Made by a program: the position numbers and the translations under genes. DNA of 38,085 nt from a virus. The stretch is from UHGV virus genome UHGV-0010575; one strand, given 5' to 3'. A model generated the notes under the pieces. That model did not search any database. It was not told where the DNA came from and was given only the letters and a program-made list of their open reading frames with translations. Positions 2,653-36,179 of this stretch are shown piece after piece; the first letter of the stretch is position 1; each line of letters opens with the position of its first letter.

Positions 2653-2967
2653 TTAATTTATTTGTATGCCTGCTCTTTCTTCATCGAGTTTTTTTAGCTT
2701 GTATCGCATAGCCCTTACTGAATAAATTGAGCGGCAGGTTGCAATTGCTATTTCTTCTGCGGAGAACTTACCGAAAAGTGATACTTCGGCTCTTGTCCAT
2801 CGTCTTCCACGAAATCGGCTAACAATGTCAGCGCCAATCCTTGTTGCTTTCGCCATTACTGCTTTCTCAGTCCTTTCCAGTTTTTCAGCGATAACTTCAA
2901 CTGGCATTGTCGCCGCTACTTCGCGCAAGAAATCGACTTCCCATTTCTCCCATGGAGTCTTTTTCAT
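2653..2967 (-). CDS. Hypothetical protein (104 aa)
   Basis: ORF in track, same strand and tight spacing within the leftward early operon. Confidence 0.5.
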
Positions 2968-2978
2968 AGGCGATACCG

Positions 2979-3461
2979 TTATTTGATAAGAAGTGAAGGT
3001 TTCCCAACTTTTAGTTGAGCACCGGGGATATTTATTCCTGCTTTTAGTTGGTGTTTGATTGCCAGTTTGTCGGCTTTAATTGTCGTTTCAAACTCAACGT
3101 ATTCAGGAGGAAGGGCGCTTGAGTCGATGATTTCTACAGTTTCTGACGGTTTGCGGATTGTTACCTGGTGAATACCTGCTCGAATCTTTTTCTTGCCAAC
3201 CATTTCAAGCGATGACGCTATATACGCCATAATTCTGTCAATCTTATTTTGAATTACTGCGGCTCGCTCATTTAGTGACTTTGCCTCTTCCTTGAGGCGT
3301 TCAGCATAACCAGATTCATTTTTAATAATGGCAAGAAGTTGCTCTATTTTATCGGTAAATTCTCCTTCCATGCCTTCTATTGTGTCAGCAATCATCTCTG
3401 GTTCTAAATCTGAATCCATCAATTTTGCGTATTCATTGGCTATTTCATATAGTTTGCTCAC
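2979..3461 (-). CDS. Gp157-family phage protein (160 aa)
   Basis: N-terminal MSKLYEIANEY... and overall pattern recalled as siphovirus Gp157 family, commonly adjacent to RecT. Confidence 0.55.
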   Translation of the reverse strand: MSKLYEIANEYAKLMDSDLEPEMIADTIEGMEGEFTDKIEQLLAIIKNESGYAERLKEEAKSLNERAAVIQNKIDRIMAYIASSLEMVGKKKIRAGIHQVTIRKPSETVEIIDSSALPPEYVEFETTIKADKLAIKHQLKAGINIPGAQLKVGKPSLLIK

Positions 3462-18730: not shown

Positions 18731-20142
18731 CCTCGATTAATCCTATCTTTGAACCGTTCATTGAGGCGCATCGCTACAAAGTCGCCAAAGGCGGTCGAGG
18801 TAGCGGTAAATCATGGGCAATTGCGAGGCTGCTTGTTGAAGCGGCGCGCCGACAGCCTGTGCGTATTCTCTGCGCTCGTGAACTGCAAAACAGTATCAGC
18901 GATTCGGTAATCCGGTTGCTTGAAGACACCATCGAGCGGGAAGGGTATTCGGCTGAGTTTGAAATTCAGCGTTCCATGATTCGTCATCTCGGAACGAATG
19001 CTGAATTCATGTTCTACGGCATCAAAAACAACCCGACGAAGATTAAATCGCTCGAAGGCATTGATATCTGCTGGGTGGAAGAAGCGGAAGCGGTAACGAA
19101 GGAATCATGGGATATCCTGATACCAACCATCCGTAAGCCGTTCTCTGAAATATGGGTGAGCTTTAACCCGAAGAACATACTCGACGATACCTATCAGCGA
19201 TTCGTTGTAAATCCTCCCGATGATATTTGCCTGCTGACGGTGAACTACACCGACAACCCGCACTTTCCTGAGGTTCTCCGTCTGGAGATGGAAGAGTGTA
19301 AACGCAGAAATCCGACACTGTATCGTCACATCTGGCTTGGTGAGCCAGTAAGCGCAAGTGATATGGCAATCATCAAACGTGAATGGCTTGAAGCAGCAAC
19401 CGATGCGCACAAGAAACTCGGATGGAAAGCGAAAGGCGCTGTTGTCTCTGCGCATGACCCATCAGATACAGGGCCAGATGCTAAAGGTTATGCATCGCGT
19501 CACGGTTCGGTGGTTAAGCGCATTGCCGAAGGTCTGCTGATGGACATCAACGAGGGTGCTGACTGGGCTACTTCGCTGGCGATTGAAGACGGCGCTGACC
19601 ATTACCTGTGGGATGGTGATGGTGTTGGTGCCGGGCTACGCAGACAGACAACGGAAGCGTTCTCCGGCAAGAAAATCACCGCCACGATGTTCAAGGGCAG
19701 CGAATCGCCATTCGATGAAGATGCACCGTATCAGGCCGGAGCATGGGCTGATGAAGTCGTACAGGGCGACAACGTTCGCACTATTGGCGATGTGTTCCGC
19801 AATAAGCGAGCGCAATTCTATTACGCGCTGGCTGACAGGCTGTATCTGACATATCGGGCGGTTGTCCACGGTGAGTATGCAGACCCCGACGACATGCTGA
19901 GTTTCGACAAAGAAGCGATAGGCGAGAAGATGCTGGAGAAGCTGTTTGCAGAACTGACGCAGATTCAGCGCAAATTCAATAATAACGGGAAGCTGGAGCT
20001 TATGACTAAGGTCGAAATGAAGCAGAAGCTCGGTATTCCATCTCCTAACCTGGCTGATGCGTTGATGATGTGTATGCATTGCCCGGAGTCGGCTGCGCAA
20101 CCCGACTATTCCAGTTACTCAATTCCTTGTGGTGTAGGTTGA
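18727..20142 (+). CDS. terL: Terminase large subunit
   Basis: 471 aa with Walker A-like GGRGSGKS and nuclease-domain acidic residues; overlaps terS stop. Confidence 0.85.
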   Translation: MTSINPIFEPFIEAHRYKVAKGGRGSGKSWAIARLLVEAARRQPVRILCARELQNSISDSVIRLLEDTIEREGYSAEFEIQRSMIRHLGTNAEFMFYGIKNNPTKIKSLEGIDICWVEEAEAVTKESWDILIPTIRKPFSEIWVSFNPKNILDDTYQRFVVNPPDDICLLTVNYTDNPHFPEVLRLEMEECKRRNPTLYRHIWLGEPVSASDMAIIKREWLEAATDAHKKLGWKAKGAVVSAHDPSDTGPDAKGYASRHGSVVKRIAEGLLMDINEGADWATSLAIEDGADHYLWDGDGVGAGLRRQTTEAFSGKKITATMFKGSESPFDEDAPYQAGAWADEVVQGDNVRTIGDVFRNKRAQFYYALADRLYLTYRAVVHGEYADPDDMLSFDKEAIGEKMLEKLFAELTQIQRKFNNNGKLELMTKVEMKQKLGIPSPNLADALMMCMHCPESAAQPDYSSYSIPCGVG

Positions 20143-20143
20143 T

Positions 20144-22342
20144 ATGGCAGAAAAAAAGATGACTGACTGGCATCGCAAGGTGCTGTGCAACTTTGATAAT
20201 GCCTGGTCAGCAACGCAGGATATGCGTGAGCAGATTATAGAAGCTCAACGCTTCGTCAGGGTGTCCGGCGCACAGTGGGAAGGCAGCACAAACGCTGGTT
20301 ACTCATTTGATGAAGGCAGGTTTGAGCATTATCCGCGCTTTGAACTGAATAAGATTGCCCGTGAATGTGATCGCATCATTGGCGAGTATCGACAGAATCG
20401 CATCAGCGTTAAATTCAGACCGAAGGACGATAAGGCATCGGAAGCGTTAGCCGAAAAGATGAACGGCAAATTCCGCGCTGATTATCAGGAAACATCCGGT
20501 GGCGAAGCGTGTGATAACGCATTTGATGATGCTGTAACGGGCGGATTCGGTTGTTTCCGCATGTGTGCCGATTACGAAGATGAAATGGATCCGAGTAACG
20601 AGCAGCGACGCATCAGCCTTCTTCCTGTTTACGACCCAGCGACATGCGTCTTCTTCGATCAGGACAGCAAGCAATATGACCGCTCTGATGCTATGTGGGC
20701 TATGGAAATGTTCTCCATGACGCCTAAAGCGTTCGAGGCTGAATACCCTGATTCCATCGCGGCAAGCCTTTCTCGTGATGACACTGGCACTCAATATGAC
20801 TGGTCAACTCCTGATGCTATCTATGTTGGTCGCTACTACGAAGTTCGCATAGAGAAGGTGAAGCTCACAGCATGGCGTAACCCTGTTAGCGGAGAAACGG
20901 CAATCTATGATGAAGATCAAATCAAAGATATTGTCGACGAGCTGACCGATGGCGCATTCGAACTGATTGGCGAGCGGACAGTGAAGAAACGCCGCGTTTA
21001 TTGCGGTCTTCTGTCTGGCGCTGAATGGCTGGAAGAACCGAAGCGTATTCCGGGTGAACATATTCCTCTCATCCCGGTATATGGGCGTCGCTCATTTGTT
21101 GATAATCAGGAGCGAATCGAAGGCCACGCTGCAAAAGCGATGGATGCACAGCGTCTTGAGAACCTGATGGTTTCCATGATTGCAGATAACGCCACTCAGG
21201 CTGGCGGCGATGGCATTCCTGTAGTTGATGTTGACATGATTCCTGGTCCTCTTGCCACTCATTGGGCGGAGCGCAACAAAAAGCGCCCGGCGTTCCTGCC
21301 GATGGTCAGTCTGAAAAACAAAAACGGAGATATTACTGCGCAGGCTCAGGTCAGCAGTTATACGCCTCCGACACAAATGCCGCCAGCTCTTGCCGGGCTA
21401 TTGCAGTACACCGGAACGGCTATTCAGCAAATTACAGGTGCGTCGCAGCTTGAGAACATGCCGAGCAACGTCGCCACCGATACCGTTGATAGCATCTTTA
21501 ACAGGATGGACACGCAGTCCTATATCTACATGGACAACATGGCTAAATCCATGCGCCGCGCTGGCGTTGTGTGGCTTTCTATGGCGCGTGAGGTCTATGG
21601 CAGCGATACGCCAATGCGCATCGTTAATGAGGACGGCAGCGATGACGTGGCGCTGATGACTGGTGAAGTGATTGACCGTCAGACAGGGCAGGTTATCGCG
21701 CTTAACGACCTTTCGCAGGGTAACTATGAAGTGACTGTCGATGTTGGTCAGTCGTTCGCTACTCGCCGTGATGCAACGGTTAAGTCGTTACTTTCCATGC
21801 TGGCACTTATCCCGCCAGGAACGCCGAAGCATGACCTTGTATCGTCGATGATTCTCGACAATATGGACGGCGAAGGGATGGACGACCTGAAAGAATACAA
21901 CCGCAATCAGTTGCTTCTGTCTGGCGTTATCAAGCCGAGAACGCCTGAAGAACAGCAGATGGTTGAACAGGCGAAACAACAACAGGCCAGTCAGCCAGAT
22001 CCGGCTATGGTTGCAGCGCAAGGTCAGCTTCTTGCTGGTCAGGCTGAATTGCAGAAAGCGCAGAACGAACAGGCAGCCATTCAGGTTAAAGCATTCCAGG
22101 CACAGACTGATGCTCAGGTTGCAGCGGCAAACGTTGTGAAAATCCTCGCATCTGCCGATAGCCAGCAGAAATCTGATATCCGCGAGGCTCTGAAACTGCT
22201 CGGACAGTTCCAGCAACAGCAAGGAGACAATGCCCGTGCTGATGCAGAGCTTGTCCTGAAAAGTCAGGCACAGGGACATGCGCAGCGCATGGACATCAGC
22301 AGCATCCTGCAAAAATCAACTCAGCAACAACCACAGCAGTAA
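20144..22342 (+). CDS. Portal protein (P22 gp1-like)
   Basis: 732 aa, position after terL, Gln-rich C-terminal barrel-like tail. Confidence 0.8.
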   Translation: MAEKKMTDWHRKVLCNFDNAWSATQDMREQIIEAQRFVRVSGAQWEGSTNAGYSFDEGRFEHYPRFELNKIARECDRIIGEYRQNRISVKFRPKDDKASEALAEKMNGKFRADYQETSGGEACDNAFDDAVTGGFGCFRMCADYEDEMDPSNEQRRISLLPVYDPATCVFFDQDSKQYDRSDAMWAMEMFSMTPKAFEAEYPDSIAASLSRDDTGTQYDWSTPDAIYVGRYYEVRIEKVKLTAWRNPVSGETAIYDEDQIKDIVDELTDGAFELIGERTVKKRRVYCGLLSGAEWLEEPKRIPGEHIPLIPVYGRRSFVDNQERIEGHAAKAMDAQRLENLMVSMIADNATQAGGDGIPVVDVDMIPGPLATHWAERNKKRPAFLPMVSLKNKNGDITAQAQVSSYTPPTQMPPALAGLLQYTGTAIQQITGASQLENMPSNVATDTVDSIFNRMDTQSYIYMDNMAKSMRRAGVVWLSMAREVYGSDTPMRIVNEDGSDDVALMTGEVIDRQTGQVIALNDLSQGNYEVTVDVGQSFATRRDATVKSLLSMLALIPPGTPKHDLVSSMILDNMDGEGMDDLKEYNRNQLLLSGVIKPRTPEEQQMVEQAKQQQASQPDPAMVAAQGQLLAGQAELQKAQNEQAAIQVKAFQAQTDAQVAAANVVKILASADSQQKSDIREALKLLGQFQQQQGDNARADAELVLKSQAQGHAQRMDISSILQKSTQQQPQQ

Positions 22343-22432
22343 TTAACCCATAACGTGCAATGGCTGTCTTTATGAGGCCTGGCACCCTATTGCCTTCCGA
22401 TGGGCTGAACATCGAGTAAACAGGGGTAACAA

Positions 22433-23326
22433 ATGGACCAGATGGCAGAAAACACACCAGAAGTTGAAATCGAAACCGACGCGTCAGAGCAGATTCCTGA
22501 TGATGTCGAACTGGCTGAAGAAGTCGAAACAGAAGATGGCAGTGAGTCCTCCGGCAATGATGCAGAGGAAGCTACTGAAACTGATGACGACGAATCAGAA
22601 CAGGAATTCTACTTTGGTGACGAAAAGCTGGATTCGCCAACCAGTGAAGATAGCGCAGAGCATGGACTGGTAAAACACCTGCGCAAGACGATTAAAGAGA
22701 AAGACCGCGAGCTGAAAGAGCTGATGCGTCAGTCTCAGAAACCCGTCGAGCAGCAGCCGGTAATCACTCAACCACCGCGAATGCCAAAACTGGATGATGA
22801 GGACATCGGTTTCGATGAAGAAATCTATCAGCAACGCATGGCTAAGTGGGCAGAGGATAACGGCAAGTACCAGGAGCAAATACGAGAGCGGAAACGAGAG
22901 GAAGAGGCGCGTACCGCAACGCTTCAGCAGAAAGCAGCCAATTACATGCATAGAGTAAAAGCACTGAAAGTGGCTGGCTACCAAGATGCAGAGCAGGCTG
23001 TACGCGAAGATGTTCCTGTTCACATTCAGGACATGATCCTTCTTGAGTCAGAGAAGCCGGAAATCGTTGTTCTGGCACTCGGCCGCAACGCTGAACTGCG
23101 CAAGCAACTGGCAGAAGCTACCAACCCCGTAGCAATTGGTCGTCTGCTGGAACGTATCGAATCTAAGGCCAGAATCATGCCAAAAGCAAAAACCACGGCA
23201 GCCACAACCCCGACAGTTAAGGGGAGCAACGGCGCAGTAATCAATAACCTCGACAAACTGAAAGCCAAGGCGCTGGAAACTGGTGACTGGACGCCGTATT
23301 TCGCCGCTAAAAAGGCAAAAAAATAA
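22433..23326 (+). CDS. Scaffolding protein (P22 gp8-like)
   Basis: 297 aa, acidic N-terminus, helical and charged, between portal and coat. Confidence 0.7.
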   Translation: MDQMAENTPEVEIETDASEQIPDDVELAEEVETEDGSESSGNDAEEATETDDDESEQEFYFGDEKLDSPTSEDSAEHGLVKHLRKTIKEKDRELKELMRQSQKPVEQQPVITQPPRMPKLDDEDIGFDEEIYQQRMAKWAEDNGKYQEQIRERKREEEARTATLQQKAANYMHRVKALKVAGYQDAEQAVREDVPVHIQDMILLESEKPEIVVLALGRNAELRKQLAEATNPVAIGRLLERIESKARIMPKAKTTAATTPTVKGSNGAVINNLDKLKAKALETGDWTPYFAAKKAKK

Positions 23327-23344
23327 CCTATCGGAGCATTAAGC

Positions 23345-24598
23345 ATGGCTAACCAATTAGCAAAAGACCTTGAAATCATGTTCGAAAACTACGTTGAAGG
23401 CTTTGAGGCCGCCTGCGTAGTTTCCCGTAACGCTAAAAAATTCCGTCCCGGTGATACAGCAATGCAGCGAGCAGGTGATGTTCTGTATCGTCCGCAGCAT
23501 TACCACATGAACATTGAGGAAGGCCTCGACCTCAGCAGCAAAACGCCAACAGCACTGGTTCAGCGCCTTGTTCCTTCTGTGTTCAAGGAGCCGAAAAACA
23601 TTCTGTACACTCTGGATGCGCGTGAAATGCGTGACCCGGAACATAAAACTGAAGCTGGTCGCGCCGCAGGTATGCGCCTTGCTGCACAGATTGACTCTGA
23701 CCTGATTTCCATGGTCACGCAGCGTGCTACTAACGTGATCACAATGGCTGACTCAACCACTGGTTCACAGGGCCGTGATTTGTGGAACTGTGCGGCAGGC
23801 ATTGATGCCACCATGACGGCGATTGGTGTACCACAGGGTATCAACCGCCGCTCTTTCTGGAACCCCTTCAACTACAAAGACCTTGCTGGCGAGCTTGGTC
23901 ACCGTGCCTATGCTCAGGGCGCAACCCTGACAGCATACGAAAAAGCGCAGATCCCTCCTGTTGCGTCCTTCGATAGCTACAAGACCGATATTTCTGGTCG
24001 TGTTCCGAAGGGTACAGCAACTTCCCTGACGCTGGCGGCTGAACCTGCGCACAAGGTTGAAGCGAAAGATGCCAACGATATGCCAGTGGATAACCGACAG
24101 GGGACTATTACGGTATCTGCATCTGGGTTGCAGGTTGGCGATGCGTTCACCATTGCTGGCGTGAATTCTGTACACCAGATCACCAAAGACACCACCGGGC
24201 AGCCGCAGGTATTCCGCGTTCTGGCAGTAAGCGGAACGACAGTAACTATCTCCCCGAAAATTCTGCCGCCTGACAACGCAGATGTCGCCAGCCGTCCATA
24301 TGCAAACGTTGATGCTAACGCGGCAAATGGTGCAGCAATTACCATTCTCAACAAAAATGCCGCACCGGCTAACCTGTTCTGGGCTGATGGTTCTGTTGAA
24401 CTGATGTACGGCAAACTGGCGTTCCCGACTGGTCAGGGTCCACAGGTAATGACAGCAACCACCGAGCAGGGCGCTACGCTGATCATGTCTTACGCCTTCG
24501 ACCATATCAAAGGCGTAACCACTGCGCGTTTCACCACTCTGTACGGTTGCTCTGTACTGGTTCCTGAATATACGGGCATCGTTATTGCCGGGCAGTAA
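23345..24598 (+). CDS. Major capsid (coat) protein, P22 gp5-like
   Basis: 417 aa; N-terminal region and C-terminal FWADGS... segment resemble P22 coat (recall). Confidence 0.8.
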   Translation: MANQLAKDLEIMFENYVEGFEAACVVSRNAKKFRPGDTAMQRAGDVLYRPQHYHMNIEEGLDLSSKTPTALVQRLVPSVFKEPKNILYTLDAREMRDPEHKTEAGRAAGMRLAAQIDSDLISMVTQRATNVITMADSTTGSQGRDLWNCAAGIDATMTAIGVPQGINRRSFWNPFNYKDLAGELGHRAYAQGATLTAYEKAQIPPVASFDSYKTDISGRVPKGTATSLTLAAEPAHKVEAKDANDMPVDNRQGTITVSASGLQVGDAFTIAGVNSVHQITKDTTGQPQVFRVLAVSGTTVTISPKILPPDNADVASRPYANVDANAANGAAITILNKNAAPANLFWADGSVELMYGKLAFPTGQGPQVMTATTEQGATLIMSYAFDHIKGVTTARFTTLYGCSVLVPEYTGIVIAGQ

Positions 24599-24602
24599 TT
24601 TT

Positions 24603-24628
24603 AGTGGGGCTTCGGCCCCATTTTTATT
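24603..24628 (+). terminator. Rho-independent terminator after coat gene (UGGGGC-UUCG-GCCCCA + U5)
   Basis: Perfect 6-bp G/C stem with UUCG tetraloop and T-run. Confidence 0.65.
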
Positions 24629-24639
24629 GGGAGAAGACA

Positions 24640-24828
24640 ATGGCACGAACAATGCTCTATAAGCCTGGCAACATGATCACCTGTGGTCAGTTTGCTGTCG
24701 ATTACATCATTGTTGATGACGAAGAAGTTAAATCTCACCTGAAAAAAGGCTGGGTAAAAACCCCTGAAGAAACCGCAACGAAGCAAAAAGTGGCTAAGGC
24801 GGAAGAAGATGGCGAAAACGAAGGGTGA
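24640..24828 (+). CDS. Small hypothetical protein (62 aa)
   Basis: Internal ATG of track ORF with GGGAGA SD. Confidence 0.4.
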   Translation: MARTMLYKPGNMITCGQFAVDYIIVDDEEVKSHLKKGWVKTPEETATKQKVAKAEEDGENEG

Positions 24829-25270
24829 TCTCGTTCTTAAGGCTTTACGAAAAGCCGGGCTGTATTCCAATGCCACGTTGATAGATGCTGACCCTCAGGC
24901 AATTGAAGATGCCATTAATGACCTCGAAGACATGATGGCAGCATGGCAGGAGAAAGGTATCGAGCTTGGGTATCAGTTTGCTGATACAGAAAACGGCATC
25001 ATGCCGTTACCTGACGATGATTCAGGTATCCCTGCATGGGCAAATGATGGCGTCGCTTTGAAACTCGCTGTGCAAGTGTGCATGGATAACGTCATTCAGC
25101 CGTCAGACGCTCTCCTTACCGCTGCTGACAGTGCATATCAAACAATCTGTATCGCTTTAACCAAAATACCACCACTTGAGCGGCGAAATGACATGCCTCG
25201 CGGTAGTGGTAACAAAAGCGCGTTTACGTGGAATCGGTTTTACATCGAGAAAGATGATTCGAGTACGTGA
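24809..25270 (+). CDS. Head-to-tail adaptor (P22 gp4-like)
   Basis: N-terminus MAKTKGDLVLKALRKAG... resembles P22 gp4 (recall). Confidence 0.65.
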   Translation: MAKTKGDLVLKALRKAGLYSNATLIDADPQAIEDAINDLEDMMAAWQEKGIELGYQFADTENGIMPLPDDDSGIPAWANDGVALKLAVQVCMDNVIQPSDALLTAADSAYQTICIALTKIPPLERRNDMPRGSGNKSAFTWNRFYIEKDDSST

Positions 25271-25279
25271 GGTGAATAA

Positions 25280-26698
25280 ATGCCAATTCAGCAACTTCCG
25301 CTTATGAAAGGTGTCGGCAAAGACTTTCGAAACGCCGACTATATCGACTATCTGCCAGTGAATATGTTGGCTACACCCAAAGAAATCCTCAACAGCAGCG
25401 GATATCTTCGCTCATTCCCGGGCATTGCCAAACGCTCTGATGTAAACGGCGTATCGCGCGGCGTCGAGTACAACATGGCGCAGAATGCTGTTTATCGTGT
25501 GTGTGGCGGCAAGCTCTACAAAGGCGAAAGCGAAGTCGGTGATGTCGCCGGAAGTGGTCGTGTATCAATGGCGCATGGTCGGACATCACAGGCGGTAGGC
25601 GTTAATGGTCGACTGGTCGAGTATCGCTATGATGGCACGGTTAAAACAGTCTCAAACTGGCCTACAGACAGCGGATTCACTCAGTATGAGTTAGGTTCAG
25701 TCCGCGATATTACGCGCTTACGTGGGCGTTATGCGTGGTCAAAAGACGGAACTGATTCATGGTTTATCACTGACCTTGAAGACGAATCACATCCTGACCG
25801 TTACAGCGCACAATATCGTGCCGAGTCTCAGCCTGACGGCATCATCGGCATCGGAACATGGCGAGACTTCATCGTCTGCTTTGGCTCATCGACGATTGAA
25901 TATTTCTCCCTGACGGGCGCAACCACTGTTGGTGCCGCTTTGTATGTCGCCCAGCCATCGTTGATGGTGCAAAAAGGAATCGCCGGAACTTACTGCAAAA
26001 CGCCATTCGCTGATTCCTATGCGTTCATCAGCAATCCGGCAACAGGTGCGCCGTCTGTTTACATCATCGGCTCCGGTCAGGTATCACCAATCGCCAGCGC
26101 GAGCATTGAGAAAATCCTCCGCTCCTACACTGCTGATGAACTGGCTGATGGCGTGATGGAGTCTCTGCGATTTGATGCGCATGAGTTGCTGATTATCCAC
26201 CTTCCACGCCATGTTCTCGTGTACGACGCATCTTCAAGCGCCAATGGTCCGCAATGGTGTGTGTTGAAAACTGGCTTGTATGACGATGTGTACCGCGCTA
26301 TCGACTTCATTTACGAAGGCAATCAGATAACGTGCGGCGATAAGCTGGAATCCGTGACCGGGAAACTGCAGTTCGATATCAGCAGCCAGTACGACAAGCA
26401 GCAGGAACATATTTTATATTCTCCTTTAATAAAGGCAGATAACGTTTTAATAAATGACCTTGAATTAGAAACATCTGGCGGCGTGTGTGATAGAATAGAT
26501 AGAATATTTATATCAGCAACTACAGATGGAATTAATTACGGTCGTGAGCAAATGGTCGTATTACAAAAACCATTTGTATATGACAATCGCGTTTTATGGC
26601 GAAAAGTTGGTCGAGTTAGACGCCTCATTGGATTTAAATTCAGAGTTATTGCAAAAGGTCCTGTTACATTATCAGGCCTTTCTATTCGTGTAACATAA
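25280..26698 (+). CDS. Tail hub / DNA stabilisation protein (P22 gp10-like)
   Basis: 472 aa, same length and position as P22 gp10; last ~100 codons are markedly AT-rich. Confidence 0.7.
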   Translation: MPIQQLPLMKGVGKDFRNADYIDYLPVNMLATPKEILNSSGYLRSFPGIAKRSDVNGVSRGVEYNMAQNAVYRVCGGKLYKGESEVGDVAGSGRVSMAHGRTSQAVGVNGRLVEYRYDGTVKTVSNWPTDSGFTQYELGSVRDITRLRGRYAWSKDGTDSWFITDLEDESHPDRYSAQYRAESQPDGIIGIGTWRDFIVCFGSSTIEYFSLTGATTVGAALYVAQPSLMVQKGIAGTYCKTPFADSYAFISNPATGAPSVYIIGSGQVSPIASASIEKILRSYTADELADGVMESLRFDAHELLIIHLPRHVLVYDASSSANGPQWCVLKTGLYDDVYRAIDFIYEGNQITCGDKLESVTGKLQFDISSQYDKQQEHILYSPLIKADNVLINDLELETSGGVCDRIDRIFISATTDGINYGREQMVVLQKPFVYDNRVLWRKVGRVRRLIGFKFRVIAKGPVTLSGLSIRVT

Positions 26699-26719
26699 AT
26701 CGAAACTAAAGGAGTAGAT

Positions 26720-27265
26720 ATGTTGAGTGAAAACGCAAAAGATATTCCTGGATATGAAGGTTTATATGCCGTAACAGAGGATGGGCGAGTATATTCTCAC
26801 TCACGTGTTGTTAAGGCTGCGCATGGCAGCACGCAACTCAGAAAGGGTCGGTGGCTAAAACAACACGAGAATAATAAAGGTTATCTATATTTGCCACTTA
26901 GTGTTGATGGAGTTAAAGTAAAATGGCTTGTGCATAGGCTTGTCGCTCTTGCTTTCGTCCCCAATCCAGAAGGCAAGCCGTTCATAAATCACATAGATAA
27001 CAACCGAAAAAATAATAATGCTTCTAATTTAGAGTGGTGTACTCAAAAGGAGAATATGAAGCATTGCTCATCTCAAGGCAGGGTGAAGTTTCCGGCTTTA
27101 AAAGGAGAAAATAATCCAATTTCAAAGCTCTCATATGAGCAAGTAATAGAAATAAAGAAATCAAAGGGAGTTAATCAAAGAGAGCTTGCTAAAAAATACT
27201 GTGTCAGTCAGACGGTGATTCACAATATCCAGTCTGGTAAATCGTGGAGGCATGTTAATGGCTGA
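26720..27265 (+). CDS. HNH homing endonuclease (NUMOD4 + HNH motifs)
   Basis: [18 protein letters not shown] (NUMOD4-like) and HRLVALAF...[11 protein letters not shown]...NLEW (HNH); AGGAG SD; AT-rich. Confidence 0.8.
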
Positions 27266-28211
27266 TTCGAATCTCAATGAGCCGGTAATCATCCAGGCTA
27301 CGCGGCTCGACACATCAGTCCTTCCGCGCAATATCTTCTCGCAGTCATATCTGCTGTACGTTATCGCACAGGGCACTGATGTTGGTAACGTGGCTAACAA
27401 GGCCAACGAAGCAGGGAAGGGGGCTTATGATGCACAGGTGAAGAATGATGAGCAGGATGTCACCCTTGCAGACCATGAGTCCAGAATTGAAGCTGCTGAA
27501 GCAACTCTCATCAATCATGAACATAGAATCGCAGCAGCGGAAAGCACTCTTGCAGATCATGAAACAAGGATTACGGCTGCTGAAACAGAGCTGGCTGATC
27601 ACGAGACGCGAATTGCTGCCAATGAATCTGAGTTAGCAAACCATGATGCGCGCATAACTCAGAATGCAACAGATATCGACGCACTGGATACCAGGCTAAC
27701 AGCGGCTGAAGGAAGCATTTCGACGCTTCAAAGCACAGTTGGTGATCACTCAACAAGAATATCTGCGCTTGAGTATGTCACAACGCGCAAGAAGTCAGAG
27801 GTCGTTTACTCAGGAGTATCGGTAACCATTCCAACAGCGCCGACCAACCTTGTTAGCCTGCTGAAAACGCTCACGCCGTCATCCGGGACGTTGGCACCAT
27901 TCTTCGACACCGTTAACAACAAGATGGTTGTTTTCAACGACAACAAAACCCTGTTCTTCAAGCTGTCGATTGTCGGGACGTGGCCCAGCGGAACCGCCAA
28001 CAGGTCAATGCAGCTAACCTTTTCCGGCTCTGTTCCTGACACGTTGGTAAGCAGTCGTAACTCGGCGACAACAACCGATAACATCCTGTTAGCTACGTTC
28101 TTCAGCGTGGATAAAGACGGCTTTCTTGCCACAAATGGCAGCACGTTAACCATTCAGTCAAATGGTGCGGCGTTTACTGCCACAACCATCAAGATAATCG
28201 CGGAGCAGTGA
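27258..28211 (+). CDS. Tail needle (P22 gp26-like) with C-terminal knob extension
   Basis: N-terminus [43 protein letters not shown] almost identical in pattern to P22 gp26; ADHETRI heptad repeats; extra ~130-aa C-terminal domain. Confidence 0.8.
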
Positions 28212-28666
28212 TGATTCAGTTCAAACCAACGCGAAACATCGACCTGATAGAAGCCGTAGGAAATCACCCTGACATTATCGCCGGGAGCAACAACGGTGAT
28301 GGATACGACTACAAACCTGATTGCCGTTACTTTGAGGTGAACGTGCACGGGCAGTTCGGCGGAATTGTTTACTATCAGGAGATTCAGCCGCTAACCTTTG
28401 ATTGCCACGCCATGTACCTGCCAGAGATTCGTGGATTCAGCAAGGAAATCGGGCTGGCGTTCTGGCGATACATTCTAACTAACACCACCGTTCAGTGCGT
28501 CACATCGTTCGCTGCACGCAAATTCCGCCACGGTCAGATGTACTGCGCAATGATTGGCCTTAAGCGTGTAGGAACCATCAAGAAATACTTCAAAGGCGTG
28601 GATGACGTGACGTTTTACAGCGCCACACGCGAAGAACTAATCGACTTCCTGAATCACAGGAGATAG
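28208..28666 (+). CDS. gp14-like virion assembly protein
   Basis: 152-aa ORF at the position of P22 gene 14; assignment by synteny. Confidence 0.45.
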
Positions 28667-28668
28667 CC

Positions 28669-29361
28669 ATGTTATATGCATTTAAGCTGGGCAGAAAGCT
28701 GCGCGGCGAGGAACCTTATTGCCCTGAAAAAGGCGGCAAAGGTGGCAGTTCTGATAAAAGCGCAAAGTATGCAGCAGAATCTCAGAAGTATGCCGCAGAC
28801 CTGCAAAATCAGCAGTGGCAGACGATCATGAAAAACCTTGCTCCGTTCACGCCTCTTGCGGAGCAGTATGTTAACCAGCTTCAGGACCTTTCCAGTTTAG
28901 AAGGTCAGGGGCAGGCACTTAATCAGTATTACAACTCTCAGCAGTATAAAGACCTTGCAGGTCAGACTCGTTACCAGAGTCTTGCTGCTGCGGAGGCTAC
29001 GGGAGGACTTGGTTCGACAGCCACAAGCAATCAACTGGCTACGATCGCGCCGACTCTCGGTCAGTCTTGGTTATCAAACCAGATGAGCAATTACAACAAT
29101 CTGGCAAACGTTGGGCTTGGTGCTCTGCAAGGTCAGGCAAACGCCGGGCAGACGTACGCCAACAACATGAGCAGCATTGCACAGCAAAGCGCAGCTCTTG
29201 CCGCTGCTAATGCTAACAAACCATCAAGTCTTCAGACAGCAATTAGCGGCGGAACGTCCGGTGCGATTGCCGGTGCAGGTCTTGCCAGCCTTTTGGGAAC
29301 ATCAACACCTTGGGGTGCTGGCATTGGTGCTGGTATCGGATTGCTTGGCTCGTTGTTTTAA
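28669..29361 (+). CDS. Ejection protein (P22 gp7-like)
   Basis: 230 aa, Gln/Ala-rich, Gly-rich hydrophobic C-terminus; synteny. Confidence 0.65.
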   Translation: MLYAFKLGRKLRGEEPYCPEKGGKGGSSDKSAKYAAESQKYAADLQNQQWQTIMKNLAPFTPLAEQYVNQLQDLSSLEGQGQALNQYYNSQQYKDLAGQTRYQSLAAAEATGGLGSTATSNQLATIAPTLGQSWLSNQMSNYNNLANVGLGALQGQANAGQTYANNMSSIAQQSAALAAANANKPSSLQTAISGGTSGAIAGAGLASLLGTSTPWGAGIGAGIGLLGSLF

Positions 29362-29370
29362 GGGGTAATC

Positions 29371-30747
29371 ATGGCTACTTGGCAAGGATCAAATGGCGGA
29401 TTGTTGGCTGGTATCGGCGGCGTCAACTCAAACGCTCCGAGCGTAAATGACATCGGCAATACGCTTCAGCTTATCAGGCAGAACAATGATATTGAGCGTT
29501 CAGGCGCTAACAATGTTGGGCTGACTGCTTTGCAAGGCCTTTCAGGTATTGCGGGGGTGTTTCAGCAGGAAAAGCAGGCTCAGCGGCAGAAAGAATTTCA
29601 GCAGGCGTACGCTAATGCTTATGCGTCTGGTGATCGCGGTGCTTTGCGTCAGTTGGCTACTCAATATCCAGACCAGATTGAATCCGTTCGTAAAGGCATG
29701 GGATTCATTGATGAAGACCAGCGTAATTCTATCGGCACCTTAGCGGCTGGCGCACGCCTTGCGTCATCGTCTCCAGAAGCAATGCAATCATGGCTGCAAA
29801 ACAACGCCAAGGAACTGACTCGCGTCGGTGTTGATCCTAATAACGTTGCTCAGATGTATCAGCAGAATCCTTCAGGATTTGGTGAGTTTGTTGATCACCT
29901 TGGAATGTCAGCGCTTGGTCCTAATGATTATTTCAATGTTCAGGACAAGATGGCTGGTCGTGAGATTGACCGAGGCAGGCTGGCAGAGACAATCCGCAGC
30001 AATCAGGCTGGCGAGGCACTTCAGGCGAGAGGGCAAAACCTTTCCTATCAGTCAGCAATGACTGGACACGGACTTGCAGCAGAAAGACTGGCACTTGATA
30101 AGCAGAAATTCGGTTTTGAAGTACAACAGGCACAAAAGAAGGCCGATGAACTTATTAATGCTGCGCCAAAACTATCCGTGAACATGGAAAAGGCTATAGA
30201 AAAATCAGCAGGTGATGCGGCAGCTAGTCGTAATGCTGCCGATTCAATGACAACGCTTGCTGACACGCTTGAGAAGGAGAAGCCAACTCCTGGTTTGTTC
30301 GGTAACGCTGAAAATATGTTCACTAAGCTTACGGGGCAAGATAACTACCTCCGAGATATGCGGATTAGATTCAACCAACTAGCCAATGCGCAGGCAACAA
30401 AGCTTCTCCCTCCCGGCCCTGCATCAGATAAGGATATTGAGTTTGCAAGGAAAGGCATTCCAAGCGAAACGGATAATCCAATGGTCATGGCTCGATGGTT
30501 AAGGGGTATGGCAAAAATGGAAAGTAATAACGCGAAGTTCAACGAGTTTAGGTCAGAGTGGATGAGTGCAAATGGCAGCCCAGGACAATCTGATCGCAAC
30601 CGAAACATCATGGGGATGGATGTTAAGAAGGGTGAATCATTGAACTCTGCGGCAAAACGTTTTCTTTCCTCAAGTTATGGCGATAGCCAACCTCAACAGC
30701 AATTGTCCGATGACGAATTAATTAGCAAATATCTCGGAGGGCAGTAA
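29371..30747 (+). CDS. Ejection protein (P22 gp20-like)
   Basis: 458 aa; synteny and size. Confidence 0.65.
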
Positions 30748-32858
30748 TGGCCTATAGTCGTGAACAGTTGATGACGGCGTTAAGGAATGCTGATGCTGCC
30801 GGCGATACTGAGGGAGCACGTCGCATTGCTCAGATGCTGTCTTCTGGTGATCAATCCACTCAAAACCAATCGCAGCCAGAAGAACAATCTCTGGTGGGAA
30901 AAGCTACTGACTGGCTCACTGGTGGTCAAAGTGCAGGGCAAATTGCAGAACAGGCTGGTCGTGGTCTGGTAAACATACCATTTGACGTATTGCAGGGTGG
31001 CGCAAGTCTGATTAATGCAATCAGTCAGGGGCTTGGTGGCCCCAAGGTTTTGGATGATGTTTATCGCCCTGTCGATCGACCGACAGACCCTTACGCGCAA
31101 GCCGGTGAAACAATTGGTGGGTATCTCCTGCCAATTGGCACAGCGGCAAAAGCTGCTGGAGCGCCAGCAAAGCTCGCTGAAGATATCGGTTCCGCAGGAA
31201 ACATGATTGCAGGTTCTCTTGCTGATGCTGCAAATCAGGAGGGTGATTTTGCACAAAATGCTGCCATTAACGGTGGTATCAATATTGGTGCTCAAGGCGT
31301 TCTTTCAGGTGTCGGGCGCGTTATTGCGCCAAGGGTTTCACAGGCTCTTGGTGGTGCAGCACTGAATTCTGCTAATGATGTTTCCAGGATGGCAAAGTCA
31401 GGTGCTGGGCGTCAGTCAATTGCCAGTCAGGCCGCTAATGTGTCCGAAGATGTAGCAAAAGCGGCTGAGTCTGCTGGAATTGATATAAACGCATTAACAC
31501 CAGGAATGCGATCTGGAAGTCGTGGAATTGCACAAGCCGAAGGCGCATTGGCATCAACACCAGGAATTGTTCAGGACGCCCATCAGGCAGCATTTAACGA
31601 AATATCATCAAAGTTAAGTCGAAACCTTGATGAATTTGGGGCCGCATCTGGAACGGCATCAGAAAAAAGTGCGGCTATAAAACAAAGGATTCTTCAAAAT
31701 CTTGATCAGATGAAGGATGCCGAGCGCGCGGCATGGGATGACGTGCGGTCAACAATGCCAAATCAAAAAGCAAGAATGCTAAATGGTAATGCCGTTATTC
31801 AGGCAGAGCGATCTGCTGGCATACCGCTTACTCCTGAAATGAAACAGTTTGTTCAGGCAAACAATCAAGGTGGAGTAACATTTGATGGCATGAAAGCATG
31901 GAGAGCGAAATTTGCTGATGCGGAGCAAAAATATAAGCGTAGCGGAGAGGCAAATGCGGCAAGGAGAGCAGGGGAAATACGTCGGGCAATTACTGATGAT
32001 ATGCGCACAATGGCGGAAAACGGCGGATTTTTTGATGACTGGCAAAAAGCTAATGATCTGTCTAAAGCGAGGTTATCAGCACAAGAGAGTGCAGAGTCTG
32101 TTTTCGGGCGTGATTTGGCAACAGATGCACTGATTACGAATGGAGTAAAATCCCTTCAATCATCGTCAGCTAAAGGTCTTAATGGTCCTGCTGGATTCCA
32201 TTCTATGATCCGCGCGCTGCCAGAATCAGAGCGTGTTCCTGCTATATCATCAATGTTGCAGGATGCTATCTCGCATGGTGTACGTGGTGGCAAATCTGAT
32301 GCAGCAGGAATTAACCATATCGCAGAGATACTCACGCCACAAAATGTAAAAGCCATTAGCCGATATTCCTCAGAGCTTGGAAGAATTGCTGATGCATATG
32401 GCACTCTTGCAAGAGCAGCAGTGAAACCTCAGCAGTATATTGAAAGAACAGGGCGAACTGCCAATGTACTACGTGATCTGGATGCCGGTTTATCCAACGT
32501 CACATCAACAGTGTTAAATGCAATTGCCAATTCAACATCAGGTGCCATTGTTGGTGGGGCAGGAGGGGGCATTGCAGGCGCTGCCGCAGGTGCTTTAGTT
32601 GGCGCCGGGCTAAAAGGTGCTGTATCTAAAATTGCCACCACACGTAGTGGTCGGTATGCGATAGAGAAAGCAGTTCAGGAAGCCACGAAAGCAGTAAGAG
32701 CTGGCGGAAGTAAAGAAGCATTAGCGGCGGCGGAACGCAGATTTATGGCAAATAAAGCCGCCGTAAAAGCAATACGCGATGCAGTTGGAAACGAAGAGTT
32801 CAATCGCTTAGCGAGGGCTGGCATTGTAGCGTCGCTAAGCGGAATGGCACAGGAGTAA
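30747..32858 (+). CDS. Ejection protein (P22 gp16-like)
   Basis: 703 aa, Ala/Gly-rich; synteny. Confidence 0.65.
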
Positions 32859-33182
32859 TTAATCATCCATGGATGGATTGAGCTTATCACGTGTTGATGT
32901 GGCGATTTGTCCTACATTCCTAAGCCAAGATTTCAAATCCTTGATATTGTCATTGATTTCATGAATATCTTCTTTTTTTAATCTGTTAATATTATTCTCA
33001 ATAATTTCAATGGATTGCTCAATATCAGATATAGTGAATGATAGTTTGTTCTTCTCATCTTTTATTGAGTTTTTAAGTGCTTCGTTCTCAGTCTTGAGGT
33101 CAGATATCTTTTGTTTTAAAGATGCCAGTTGGTACTGAACCACAATGAGTGCGATAGCTATCGCGATAACTGTTGTATACAC
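32859..33182 (-). CDS. Unrecognised small membrane-anchored coiled-coil protein (107 aa)
   Basis: ORF in track; N-terminal TM (YTTVIAIAIALIVVQY) then heptad-rich region; AT-rich. Confidence 0.5.
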   Translation of the reverse strand: MYTTVIAIAIALIVVQYQLASLKQKISDLKTENEALKNSIKDEKNKLSFTISDIEQSIEIIENNINRLKKEDIHEINDNIKDLKSWLRNVGQIATSTRDKLNPSMDD

Positions 33183-33204
33183 ACCAACCTCCTTAGTTGA
33201 TATT

Positions 33205-33624
33205 TTATTTGTATGAAATCAACGAGTTAAGCTCCCTCTCATTTAGAGATTGGAATCTTTTTTCAGTTATATCAATGATGGCTGGCAATAGTTTTTTTAC
33301 CTTCTCATGACCATCAGGTTTAATGATAGCAATGATCTGGATATGAATTGGATATGTGTTGTGTACCGCAAATATCAAAAAGTTATCGCTAACTCTACGA
33401 TGTATTGGCGTTGTTCTTAACCAAGGATCATCTACTCCAGGGATCCTGATGTGCGACTTGTAAATTCCCGATAAGACGGCGTGATGGTTTCTCTCAAACC
33501 CACCAATCTTACCAAGATAAGCTGAAACGGTGCCTCTGTTTTTGTAGTTTGCAAGAGCCTTCGCAAAGTATTGTTCTAATGGTCCAGCCGCTGCATCTAC
33601 AACAATGCTTATGCGGTTTTCCAT
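33205..33624 (-). CDS. Unrecognised protein (139 aa); weak resemblance to YafO-type toxins
   Basis: ORF in track; C-terminal IAIIKPDGHEK... segment resembles YafO ILKPEPH region (recall, low confidence). Confidence 0.45.
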   Translation of the reverse strand: MENRISIVVDAAAGPLEQYFAKALANYKNRGTVSAYLGKIGGFERNHHAVLSGIYKSHIRIPGVDDPWLRTTPIHRRVSDNFLIFAVHNTYPIHIQIIAIIKPDGHEKVKKLLPAIIDITEKRFQSLNERELNSLISYK

Positions 33625-34208
33625 TTTGGTGCTTCCATGCCAAATCTTTTATGTGAATCTTCAACTGATTTCTTGAAGGAAGCCAACTCTTCTTCAGTGA
33701 ACTCTTCAGGTTCAGCATATGATAGTGGTATGTGCTGCATTGCTAGCGTCACAAGCCCCATTGTTAGCCTTTTGTATTCTATAAAAGTATTGATTGAGTG
33801 GTTTTTCATTGTTGTAAGAGTTGACATATGGGGCTTCCACGCATCGCTGTTCTCAGCGATGAAGAAGGTATACAACAGTTTCGCGATACCATAATCAAGC
33901 TTAGATATCTGATCGTTCAACATATCTACATCGTCATGTTGAATATCAAGTGAGGAAATATCTTCTTCTGTACCATTACTTAATATGTCAATGAATGTAA
34001 TGTACTTTTTGCAAACTTCCTCTACAGGTGACATAACGCAGTAGATCTTGCTAAGAGCTTCAGAAGCCTGTTTTTTAGACAAAGAGCCGCTATGACTGCG
34101 ATCAAAGTCTGAAATTGAACGCTCGATAGATGTTGATATGTCAGAAAAAACGTTTTCAATTTTTCCTGGCTCTTGATTCAGGATGGCCATAACGCCTATC
34201 TCAATCAC
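33609..34208 (-). CDS. Unrecognised acidic protein (199 aa)
   Basis: ORF in track; GTG start (alternative ATG at 34190); overlaps downstream gene by 16 nt. Confidence 0.45.
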   Translation of the reverse strand: MIEIGVMAILNQEPGKIENVFSDISTSIERSISDFDRSHSGSLSKKQASEALSKIYCVMSPVEEVCKKYITFIDILSNGTEEDISSLDIQHDDVDMLNDQISKLDYGIAKLLYTFFIAENSDAWKPHMSTLTTMKNHSINTFIEYKRLTMGLVTLAMQHIPLSYAEPEEFTEEELASFKKSVEDSHKRFGMEAPKWKTA

Positions 34209-35026: not shown

Positions 35027-35226
35027 GTAAAGAATGTTGTTTCTGCGGCATTAGCGAATCAGACACTGATCAAACATACATTTACTCTAAAGAAACAGGT
35101 CGGATGCTGTGTAGTGACTGCGTGTTGGACATCATAAGATACAAGCATCTTGGATGTTCTGCCAGCATTAGCAATATAGGTGAAGTATACGAAGGGAAAG
35201 ATATAACTGATAGAGCAGAAAGTTGA
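35023..35226 (+). CDS. Small Cys-rich (zinc-ribbon-like) protein (67 aa)
   Basis: ATGA overlap with arc stop; CxxC...CxxC pattern (CCFCG ... CSDC). Confidence 0.4.
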
Positions 35227-35288
35227 AGCCCCAACTGCGGGAACAGTCAGGGCTTCGGTATCAACAAAACTTACGAGGTATTATTGAT

Positions 35289-36179
35289 ATGTCAAGCTTA
35301 GCAAAGTCAGCTGTAAATTGCACTAATAGCATCATCATTTCTGACGTCAAGATTCATATGGATTCAGAGGGTCGTTACTCGCTTAATGACCTTCATGTAG
35401 CGTCTGGAAAGGAGGAAAAACATCAGCCAGCTTTCTTCATGCGTAGAAATGAAACTATTGAATTGATTAATGAAATTTTTAATTCTGCGGATATGCAGAA
35501 TAAGAATCCCGTCATTTCTAAGAAAGGTAGATATGGTGGAACATACGTGTGCAAGGAGCTTGTTTACTCCTACGCCATGTGGATTAGCGCAGCATTTGCG
35601 CTGAAGGTTATCCGCGCATATGACGCAATGGTTACTGCCACACAAGAGAGGAAGGCTATTGGCGGTAAAACTTCAGTAGCTGAACGCACGCCGCTACGCG
35701 ATGCAGTAAACATGCTGGTAGGAAAGAAAGGACTTCGCTATGACGATGCATACAATATGGTTCATCAGCGTTTTGGTATTGACAGCATTGATGAACTTTC
35801 AATTGAACAAATCCCGCTGGCCGTAGAGTACATCCACAGGGTAGTGCTTGAAGGTGAGTTCATTGGCAAACAAGAGAAGAAAACCAACGAGCTTTCTGCA
35901 AAAGAAGCAAACAGCCTTGTATGGTTATGGGATTATGCCAACCGCTCACAGGCATTATTCCGCGAATTGTATCCGGCATTAAAACAAATTCAATCGAACT
36001 ATTCCGGCAGATGCTACGACTATGGTCATGAGTTCTCGTATGTTATCGGAATGGCGAGAGACGTTTTAATAAACCACACACGAGATATTGATATTAATGA
36101 GCCAGACGGACCAACGAATCTTTCCGCATGGATGAGACTTAAGAATAAAGAATTACCTCCTTCAATACATAACTACTGA
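35289..36179 (+). CDS. ant: Antirepressor (KilA-N domain N-terminus)
   Basis: Position downstream of arc; KilA-N-like N-terminal region; start at internal ATG of track ORF. Confidence 0.6.

Follow-up and report, generated by a model that had tools for sequence, protein, structure and literature searches.

A probable intronless homing cassette that joins an I-HmuI-like HNH gene to a diverged gp10 end in P22-like phages

Introduction

Free-standing homing endonucleases cut away from their own gene and spread together with flanking sequence (PMC2988022). In phage T4, the genes of SegF, SegG, SegB, and MobE (HNH class) lie between conserved genes and are present or absent among collinear relatives, and the flanking donor sequence of the neighbouring gene is co-inherited, with exchange points in the flanking homology (PMC2988022, PMC2790892). 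In the lactococcal Skunavirus phages, I-HmuI-like HNH genes cluster by insertion site, vary in number and position between close phages, are associated with genome diversification, and in some cases cause marker exclusion (PMC12724721). Here we describe an 847-nucleotide (nt) cassette of this general design in UHGV-0010575, a virus genome of 38,085 nt, which was analysed as a whole and is referred to below as the window. The window is a mosaic P22-like (Lederbergvirus, Sf6/HK620-type) Escherichia coli phage or prophage with 46% GC. The cassette consists of an AT-rich 3' end of the structural gene gp10 and an HNH endonuclease gene that precedes the tail needle gene, and it is probably a unit that spreads by intronless homing.

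The locus shares with the T4 systems the position of the endonuclease gene between conserved genes, its presence or absence among collinear relatives, and the co-inheritance of a piece of the neighbouring gene. Unlike in T4, the carriers are temperate P22-like podoviruses and prophages, the enzyme is NUMOD4/I-HmuI-like rather than a GIY-YIG Seg or a T4 Mob enzyme, and what is co-inherited is a fixed allele, deeply diverged, of one part of an essential structural gene, so that the carriers make a chimeric gp10. The variation in number and position and the clustering by insertion site are shared with the Skunavirus HNH genes. The host and the phage lineage are different, and marker exclusion is experimental for some of the Skunavirus enzymes, whereas the P22-like enzymes are known from sequence. 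All the membership features that can be tested on sequence are present, and the cassette appears to work like a free-standing homing endonuclease cassette. A literature search found no paper on an HNH gene at the gp10/needle position in P22-like phages; Casjens and Thuman-Commike 2011 (Virology 411:393) was not covered by this search.

The gp10 Junction

The features of the locus are listed below. The term “plus-type” is used for the AT-rich gp10 end and “minus-type” for the standard gp10 end. GC3 is the GC content at third codon positions.

25280-26698, + strand: gp10 (head closure / DNA stabilisation protein), 472 amino acids (aa); PF11134, E=7.6e-284
25280-26410, + strand: native part of gp10, codons 1-377; GC 0.515, GC3 0.546; 93-96% nt identity to HNH-free and HNH-bearing E. 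coli-type gp10
26411-26698, + strand: plus-type C-terminal segment of gp10, codons 378-472 and stop; foreign, AT-rich, in frame
26699-26719, + strand: spacer ATCGAAACTAAAGGAGTAGAT, 21 nt; Shine-Dalgarno (SD) sequence AAGGAG at 26709-26714, 5 nt upstream of the HNH ATG
26720-27265, + strand: free-standing I-HmuI-like HNH endonuclease gene, 181 aa; NUMOD4 and HNH_3 by Pfam
26411-27257, + strand: the probable mobile cassette as a unit, 847 nt; stands in for the 288-nt standard gp10 end of HNH-free relatives
27258-28211, + strand: tail needle (gp26 homologue, Sf6-knob type); PF16532, E=2.9e-107

The composition changes abruptly within gp10. In 150-nt windows, GC is 0.50-0.54 up to ~26400, 0.33-0.36 over 26400-26700, 0.35-0.44 in the HNH gene, and 0.49-0.52 from ~27200. 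The last 288 nt of gp10 have a GC of 0.34 and a GC3 of 0.177, compared with the values given above for the first 1131 nt. The step at 26406 is the second-largest drop between adjacent 288-nt windows of the whole sequence, and equally AT-rich 288-nt windows make up 0.04% of the structural block 19000-33000. The composition step is real and far from what chance would give. In Megablast, the homology to more than 25 P22-like phages breaks off at query base 1130, which is window position 26409, and nucleotide alignment places the junction at 26410/26411, following codon His377, where ...GAACAT meets ATTTTATATTC.

The initial annotation of this DNA had described an abrupt AT-rich switch from about 26410 with the gp10 frame kept. 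Sliding GC and alignment show that this coordinate was exact, and gp10 still has 472 aa. The description of the 3' end as “recoded” was strictly wrong. Compared with the gp10 of the HNH-free phage JEP4, codons 1-377 are ~99% identical in aa and 95% in nt, and codons 378-472 are ~65% identical in aa and 57% in nt. The plus-type end has the same ~57% nt and 65% aa identity to HNH-free ends in general, and 74-100% identity to the ends of all HNH-bearing gp10. Since about one-third of the last 95 residues (~33) differ from the standard end, together with ~43% of the nucleotides, the AT-rich end is, by alignment, a diverged foreign allele and not a synonymous recoding.

Rare E. coli codons cluster in the plus-type end, with two AGA and three ATA among the seven consecutive codons at 26492-26512 (..R I D R I F I..). 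This run might slow gp10 translation just ahead of the HNH start.

Organization of the Cassette

Homology to JEP4 stops at ~26410 and picks up again at 27256 (TAATGGCTGA), so that 847 nt (26411-27257) replace the 288-nt standard end. The empty site is seen in JEP4, Gally, Sf6, and HK620, which have no HNH gene and are collinear with the window and 95% identical to it up to 26409 and from 27256. The true start of the needle is the ATG at 27258 (MADSNLNEP), and the same call has been made by the Prokaryotic Genome Annotation Pipeline (PGAP) in identical prophages. The HNH stop codon (27263-27265) and the needle start overlap by 8 nt, ATGGCTGA. The placement of the HNH gene (26720-27265) between two structural genes with an overlap of the needle start, as initially annotated, was correct, and the ATG at 27258 and the 8-nt overlap correct the position of that start.

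The SD sequence of the needle (GGAGG, 27246-27250) sits within the final codons of the HNH gene. In all three E. coli variants of the HNH gene, A (the variant of the window), B, and C, the gene ends in ...tggaggcatgt(t/g)aATGGCTGA, and the protein end ...WRHVNG before the stop is conserved. In HNH-free phages, the needle ATG is overlapped by the gp10 stop instead (GAGTAATGG). The presence of the needle SD in the conserved HNH end therefore preserves translational coupling into the needle gene. At the other side of the gene, the spacer has a conserved form, ATCGAAACTnAAGGAGTAGAT, that is shared by all enterobacterial HNH variants and by the UPF_BP1-type upstream cassette described below. For an own promoter or terminator of the HNH gene, the matches nearby are at or below chance, and the gene is therefore expressed from the late operon transcript.

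No Rfam intron family was found in 25200-28300, where the only match was to a snoRNA at chance level (E=0.68). The gp10 gene runs uninterrupted to a stop codon of its own, the HNH gene is equipped with a separate SD and ATG, and both neighbouring open reading frames (ORFs) are intact. A group I intron-encoded homing endonuclease is ruled out by the missing intron RNA family and the intact neighbouring ORFs, and the HNH gene is free-standing because no intron RNA is present.

The HNH Protein

The regions of the 181-aa protein and the codons of its HNH motif are as follows.

aa 7-60: NUMOD4
aa 70-113: HNH_3
aa 139-172: C-terminal three-helix region, helix-turn-helix (HTH)-like
26990-26992, + strand: codon of H91
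27026-27028, + strand: codon of N103
27053-27055, + strand: codon of N112

Public annotation labels the gene “NUMOD4 domain-containing protein” or “HNH endonuclease”. NUMOD4 scores 44.1 bits (cut-off 23.4) and HNH_3 scores 40.8 bits (cut-off 24.8), and the HTH_3 match alone stays below threshold (17.3 vs. 23 bits). The closest solved protein is I-HmuI of Bacillus phage SPO1 (PDB 1U3E), which is the sole significant sequence match among solved structures (phmmer E=2.3e-12, 27% identity). The AlphaFold2 model has a mean predicted local distance difference test score (pLDDT) of 90.4, and in Foldseek 1U3E is its sole match with E<=0.001 (E=8.3e-9, full length, 182 aligned columns). The TM-score is 0.52-0.54 with a high root-mean-square deviation, which an elongated protein of several domains modelled in the absence of DNA would be expected to show. 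In both proteins, an N-terminal beta-sheet region that binds DNA (NUMOD4) is followed by an HNH core of the beta-beta-alpha-metal type and by a helical, HTH-like domain at the C-terminus. They share only the 27% identity given above, and I-HmuI, which nicks one strand, is encoded within a group I intron of the DNA polymerase gene, unlike the free-standing gene described here.

The HNH residues H91, N103, and N112 align with I-HmuI H75, N87, and N96. In the paper on the 1U3E structure, this His/Asn/Asn set is reportedly given catalytic or metal-binding roles. The initial annotation had made its reading depend on the presence of the catalytic residues, and all of N90, H91, N103, N112, and H115 are kept in the window protein and are invariant or nearly so in 121 homologues. 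Purifying selection on the gene is strong, with a pN (nonsynonymous differences per site) of 0.10 against a pS (synonymous) of 0.72 and a dN/dS of about 0.05 in the comparison with an 85%-identical homologue. By family and fold, the protein is an I-HmuI-like HNH homing endonuclease, and it is predicted to be an active nuclease.

Linkage of the Plus-Type End with an HNH Gene

The presence of an HNH gene follows the type of the gp10 end. Among 80 IMG/VR loci, an HNH gene accompanies 24 of the 24 plus-type ends and none of the 56 minus-type ends (Fisher p = 6e-21). It stands directly after the 21-nt spacer in 23 of the 24, and in the remaining locus (L054) it is separated from gp10 by an insertion of ~785 nt. 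All 22 gp10 loci in the GTDB species representatives, low-GC hosts included, are minus-type and HNH-free. Among 127 matching phage records, the plus-type end is confined to HZ41, which carries the HNH gene as well; the other records match the end at ~69%, and the HNH gene is absent from this site in 126 of the 127.

Among 5,426 complete E. coli genomes, the whole cassette is present in 16 at 98.5% identity or above. With a 401-nt query that spans the gp10 end, the spacer, and the HNH start, 56 genomes carry at least 80% of the query. The identity band of 60-80%, which is the standard-end class, holds 123 genomes with no AT-rich end among the sampled matches. Each plus-type end sampled adjoins a NUMOD4 gene, with two exceptions in which insertion sequences (IS1 and IS3) have entered the HNH gene. 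The initial annotation had regarded an AT-rich end in HNH-free orthologues as the finding that would speak against it; such ends were seen in 0/56 IMG/VR loci, 0/22 GTDB loci, and no sampled E. coli match. The HNH ORF is intact in all plus-type loci examined but three, which are interrupted by insertions.

The interrupted HNH genes are mostly in degraded prophages. They are an IS3 insertion in ETEC6334 (L008 3401-4629), an IS1 insertion in M160133 (NZ_CP022164), and the ~785-nt insertion in L054 (2786-3594).

The position and the distribution of the gene also bear on the proposal that the HNH protein serves the phage, either as a weapon against competing P22-like genomes and resident prophages or as an accessory nuclease for DNA packaging or processing. 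Homing endonucleases can give a competitive advantage between co-infecting phages (PMC11620839), the gene is in the late operon with its coupling to the needle kept, and an interference function would fit the same specificity of cleavage as homing does. However, a role in packaging is unlikely for a gene that is not beside the terminase and whose site is empty in 126 of 127 phage records, while interference would add to homing and not replace it, and would leave the linked foreign gp10 end unexplained. We consider a phage-serving function in place of homing improbable. A terminase-associated HNH protein like HK97 gp74 was rejected, given the location between gp10 and the needle and the patchy distribution.

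Mosaicism and Age of the Cassette

The two parts of gp10 have different histories. The first 1131 nt do not partition by HNH status, and the E. coli-type genes, including those of the HNH-free JEP4, Sf6, HK620, and Sf101, are all 93-96% identical. The last 288 nt form two clades, with identities of 74-100% within the HNH-bearing clade, 79-97% within the HNH-free clade, and 53-62% between them. HNH homologues at 85, 75, 68, and 61% identity fill the same slot in P22-like phages whose gp10 5' parts are 71-73% identical, and the E. coli variants B (about 50%) and C (56%) are also in this slot; all have the same spacer and a plus-type end. As judged from these comparisons, the pairing of the plus-type end with an HNH gene is old and widespread, and not a recent event private to this phage.

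The plus-type end has a GC3 of 0.18-0.38 in enterobacterial backgrounds of 47-56% GC and is always AT-rich in them. A prophage of Providencia rettgeri (L010, 44% GC) has the same slot and a plus-type protein variant with no GC contrast (GC3 0.46). The composition of the module fits a background of roughly 35-42% GC, which a donor would be expected to have. The L010 prophage was rejected as the direct source of the E. coli cassette, its GC3 of 0.46 being too high compared with 0.18. A protein homology search with the 95-aa plus-type end returned 11 short fragments only and no donor. The initial annotation had read the AT-rich end as a co-conversion tract imported from a lower-GC donor; the import is borne out by the two clades that are confined to the last 288 nt, and the low-GC donor was not found. 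In the Providencia loci L010 and L011 (2180-3973), gp10 is called with 597 aa, compared with 472 aa elsewhere, as the call begins ~375 nt further upstream, in overlap with gp4. The longer protein may have a true N-terminal extension or may result from faulty gene calling.

With no donor found, it can be asked whether the AT-rich end evolved in place, by escape from self-cleavage or by tuning of translation before the HNH gene. The gp10 end (GC3 0.18) is indeed more AT-rich than the HNH gene (GC3 0.35), and the left extension of the AT-rich sequence in variant B is almost purely synonymous. On the other hand, the extent of residue and nucleotide change in the end contrasts with the adjoining 1131 nt, which are 93-96% identical to those of HNH-free relatives, and the same protein variant occurs in phages with gp10 5' parts that are 71-73% identical and in the Providencia phage without GC contrast. 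A diverged end beside a conserved 1131 nt and the occurrence of the same variant in distant lineages point to the import of an old allele, and evolution in place is very improbable.

A recent spread of the cassette itself is supported by these data. No mismatch to the window is found over 856 nt (26410-27265) in five E. coli prophages (Australia, China, and Cuba), while the divergence of their gp10 5' parts is 3.4-4.9%. Mismatches begin at 26401 on the left and, in four of the five, at 27280 on the right (27479 in strain T2). HZ41 has one mismatch inside the cassette and shares a further 200 nt on the left with two mismatches, beyond which mismatches rise to 1 in 17 nt. Of the recent homing suggested in the initial annotation, the spread of the cassette is supported, as identical cassettes lie between diverged flanks, but the union of the gp10 end with the HNH gene is old and found in many lineages. 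In 13 distinct haplotypes of the A cassette, the diversity per site is 0.6% in the cassette, 5.75% in the left 1131 nt, and 13.7% in the right 200 nt, so that cassette diversity is about 10-fold below flank diversity. In the 17 haplotype pairs with identical cassettes, the flanks have diverged by 5.6%, and identity reaches 9-48 nt to the left and 22-257 nt to the right. The HNH protein WP_021514124 has been found beside different gp4 types, gp10 alleles, and needle types. In variant-B cassettes, the AT-rich sequence begins ~32 nt further left. Variable end-points of this kind are what true co-conversion tracts would look like.

Exchange has also taken place inside the cassette. The HNH variants A, B (177 aa; L004/L005 3319-3852), and C (181 aa; L007 3341-3886) are 49-56% identical in protein and have in common the spacer and both ends of the HNH gene (~40 nt at its start and ~14 nt at its end). 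The plus-type end exists as two sub-alleles, NVLIND/DRIF/GINYG and NALIND/DKIF/GISYG, each of which is seen with HNH-A and with HNH-B. Recombination has therefore also occurred within the cassette, in the conserved stretch formed by the spacer and the opening 40 nt of the HNH gene.

A Mirror-Image Cassette at the gp10 5' End

A related gene is found at the opposite end of gp10. In the Salmonella phage UPF_BP1 (L003 1883-2680) and the prophage of E. coli STEC308 (L009 2884-3680), a 194-aa HNH protein is encoded between gp4 and gp10. Its first 47 aa are nearly identical to those of the window HNH protein, the remainder is diverged, and the tail of the gene runs 53 nt into gp10. Upstream of it are a 93-nt remnant of the native gp10 5' end (90/93 nt as in the window), which PGAP labels as a partial gp10, 26 nt of unrelated sequence, and the same 21-nt spacer. 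In the full gp10 that lies downstream, the initial ~120 nt have diverged and are richer in AT (MAIQQLPLMKGLGKSAVNADYIDQ...; 47 of 120 nt mismatched), and the sequence then returns to background. One locus (IMGVR_UViG_3300029095_000310, L057) has both HNH genes, of which the first (838-1419) is 99.5% identical to the UPF_BP1 type and the second (2810-3352) is 100% identical to the A type. The gp10 of this locus should be a three-part chimera. A related HNH gene at each end of gp10, each with a diverged adjacent piece of gp10, would be hard to explain as a coincidence of ordinary mosaicism.

This arrangement is relevant to the most conventional alternative, in which general recombination moves the gp10 end together with the HNH gene as a passenger block and the nuclease is inactive on phage DNA or a selfish remnant. 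Mosaicism is strong among P22-like phages, and the phage collection contains no close full-length relative of the window, the best match being Kapi1 (56% coverage at 96.5% identity). The boundaries of the cassette fall on the edges of non-homology, the linkage is explicable by the absence of homology that would part the end from the HNH gene, and the scan of minus-type ends described below gave no target site. A passenger block does not readily account for an HNH ORF that is under strong purifying selection, intact save for the three insertion cases, and complete in its motif residues, nor for a cassette diversity 10-fold below that of the flanks. The second family member at the other gp10 end again has a diverged gp10 piece, and the characterised relatives are active homing or marker-exclusion enzymes. 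General recombination of an idle module is therefore regarded as unlikely.

Proposed Mechanism

The reading that we prefer is that the cassette at 26411-27257 contains a free-standing I-HmuI-like homing endonuclease and spreads by intronless homing, which is probable on the combined evidence of gene integrity, family and fold, cassette boundaries, linkage, incongruence, and reduced diversity. Homing would begin when an HNH-bearing phage meets an HNH-free P22-like genome, either in a co-infection or when an infecting phage meets a resident prophage. The late-expressed enzyme would then nick or cut the HNH-free genome, either in its minus-type gp10 3' end or at its gp10/needle junction, and recombinational repair by host RecA or a phage recombinase would copy the cassette out of the HNH-bearing genome. 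Exchange would take place in the first stretches of good homology, which lie on the left side of 26410 and where the needle gene starts. The cassette would bring with it the diverged gp10 end, which probably gives the carrier resistance to its own enzyme. The short flanking tracts suggest a break inside the replaced 288 nt or at the junction, and such tracts could equally result from subsequent recombination in the flanks. The steps that we infer from the comparison of genomes are the cleavage activity, the location of the target, and the immunity role of the plus-type end.

Several points weigh against this mechanism. When 40 distinct minus-type ends were scanned for a conserved target, no stretch of 12 nt or more was conserved at 95% or above. 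Sharp boundaries are also expected from ordinary mosaic exchange at the edges of heterology. The absolute linkage could be purely structural, since an HNH-free genome has no homology at the point between the plus-type end and the HNH gene, and ordinary recombination with it cannot separate the two. A low-GC donor with a uniformly AT-rich plus-type gp10 was not found among the 22 GTDB gp10 loci, which include the low-GC hosts Arsenophonus, Morganella, and Xenorhabdus. Finally, the protein differs from I-HmuI in having Asn at the position of Asp74, although Asn is the norm in the family (119/121 homologues).

Gene Neighbourhood

Upstream of gp10 is the following gene, given for context.

24809-25270, + strand: gp4 (head-tail adaptor); PF11650, E=5.7e-41

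The next gene after the needle in the local gene order encodes a gp14-like DUF2824 protein. Directly after the coat gene, a strong terminator-like hairpin, AGTGGGGCTTCGGCCCCATT with a T-run, is located at 24603-24622 and matches the position annotated “t coat” in Sf6 and HK620. The largest GC drop of the window is at 32843, directly after a gene of 703 aa. The low-GC block that follows (32859-34208, - strand) contains three minus-strand ORFs, one of which has a YafO-type toxin domain (33205-33624, PF13957, E=3e-11). This block resembles a moron or accessory region and lies upstream of an antirepressor-like gene (35223-36179, KilA-N and P22_AR_C). The tailspike gene (36280-38085) continues past the window end and has a P22-type head-binding domain (PF09008); its match to the endosialidase-chaperone domain Peptidase_S74 is weak.

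Significance

The locus is probably a clean but ordinary case of homing-endonuclease-type mobility, and it leaves the understanding of homing endonucleases unchanged. Its value is as a very clean natural record of mosaicism driven by an endonuclease within an essential virion gene. Because P22, Sf6, and HK620 are genetically tractable, gp10 structures have been solved (tail structures of Sf6 and P22, 7SG7 and 8TVR), and HZ41 is an isolated phage with the cassette, the homing, the target recognition, the immunity, and any fitness cost of a chimeric gp10 are directly testable. For annotation, the cassette accounts for odd AT-rich gp10 ends and for partial gp10 duplicates that PGAP calls pseudogenes.

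A broader and more speculative reading, which we offer tentatively, is that the gp10 gene of P22-like phages is a battleground of HNH cassettes, each bringing a replacement piece of gp10, an essential gene of the tail hub, as a portable immunity allele, at the 3' end in A, B, and C and at the 5' end in the UPF_BP1 type. Divergent variants in the same slot would perhaps target each other's alleles and replace one another in succession, and the enzymes would perhaps be weapons between phages and prophages. If this were true, homing endonucleases, and not general recombination, would set the mosaic boundaries inside gp10.

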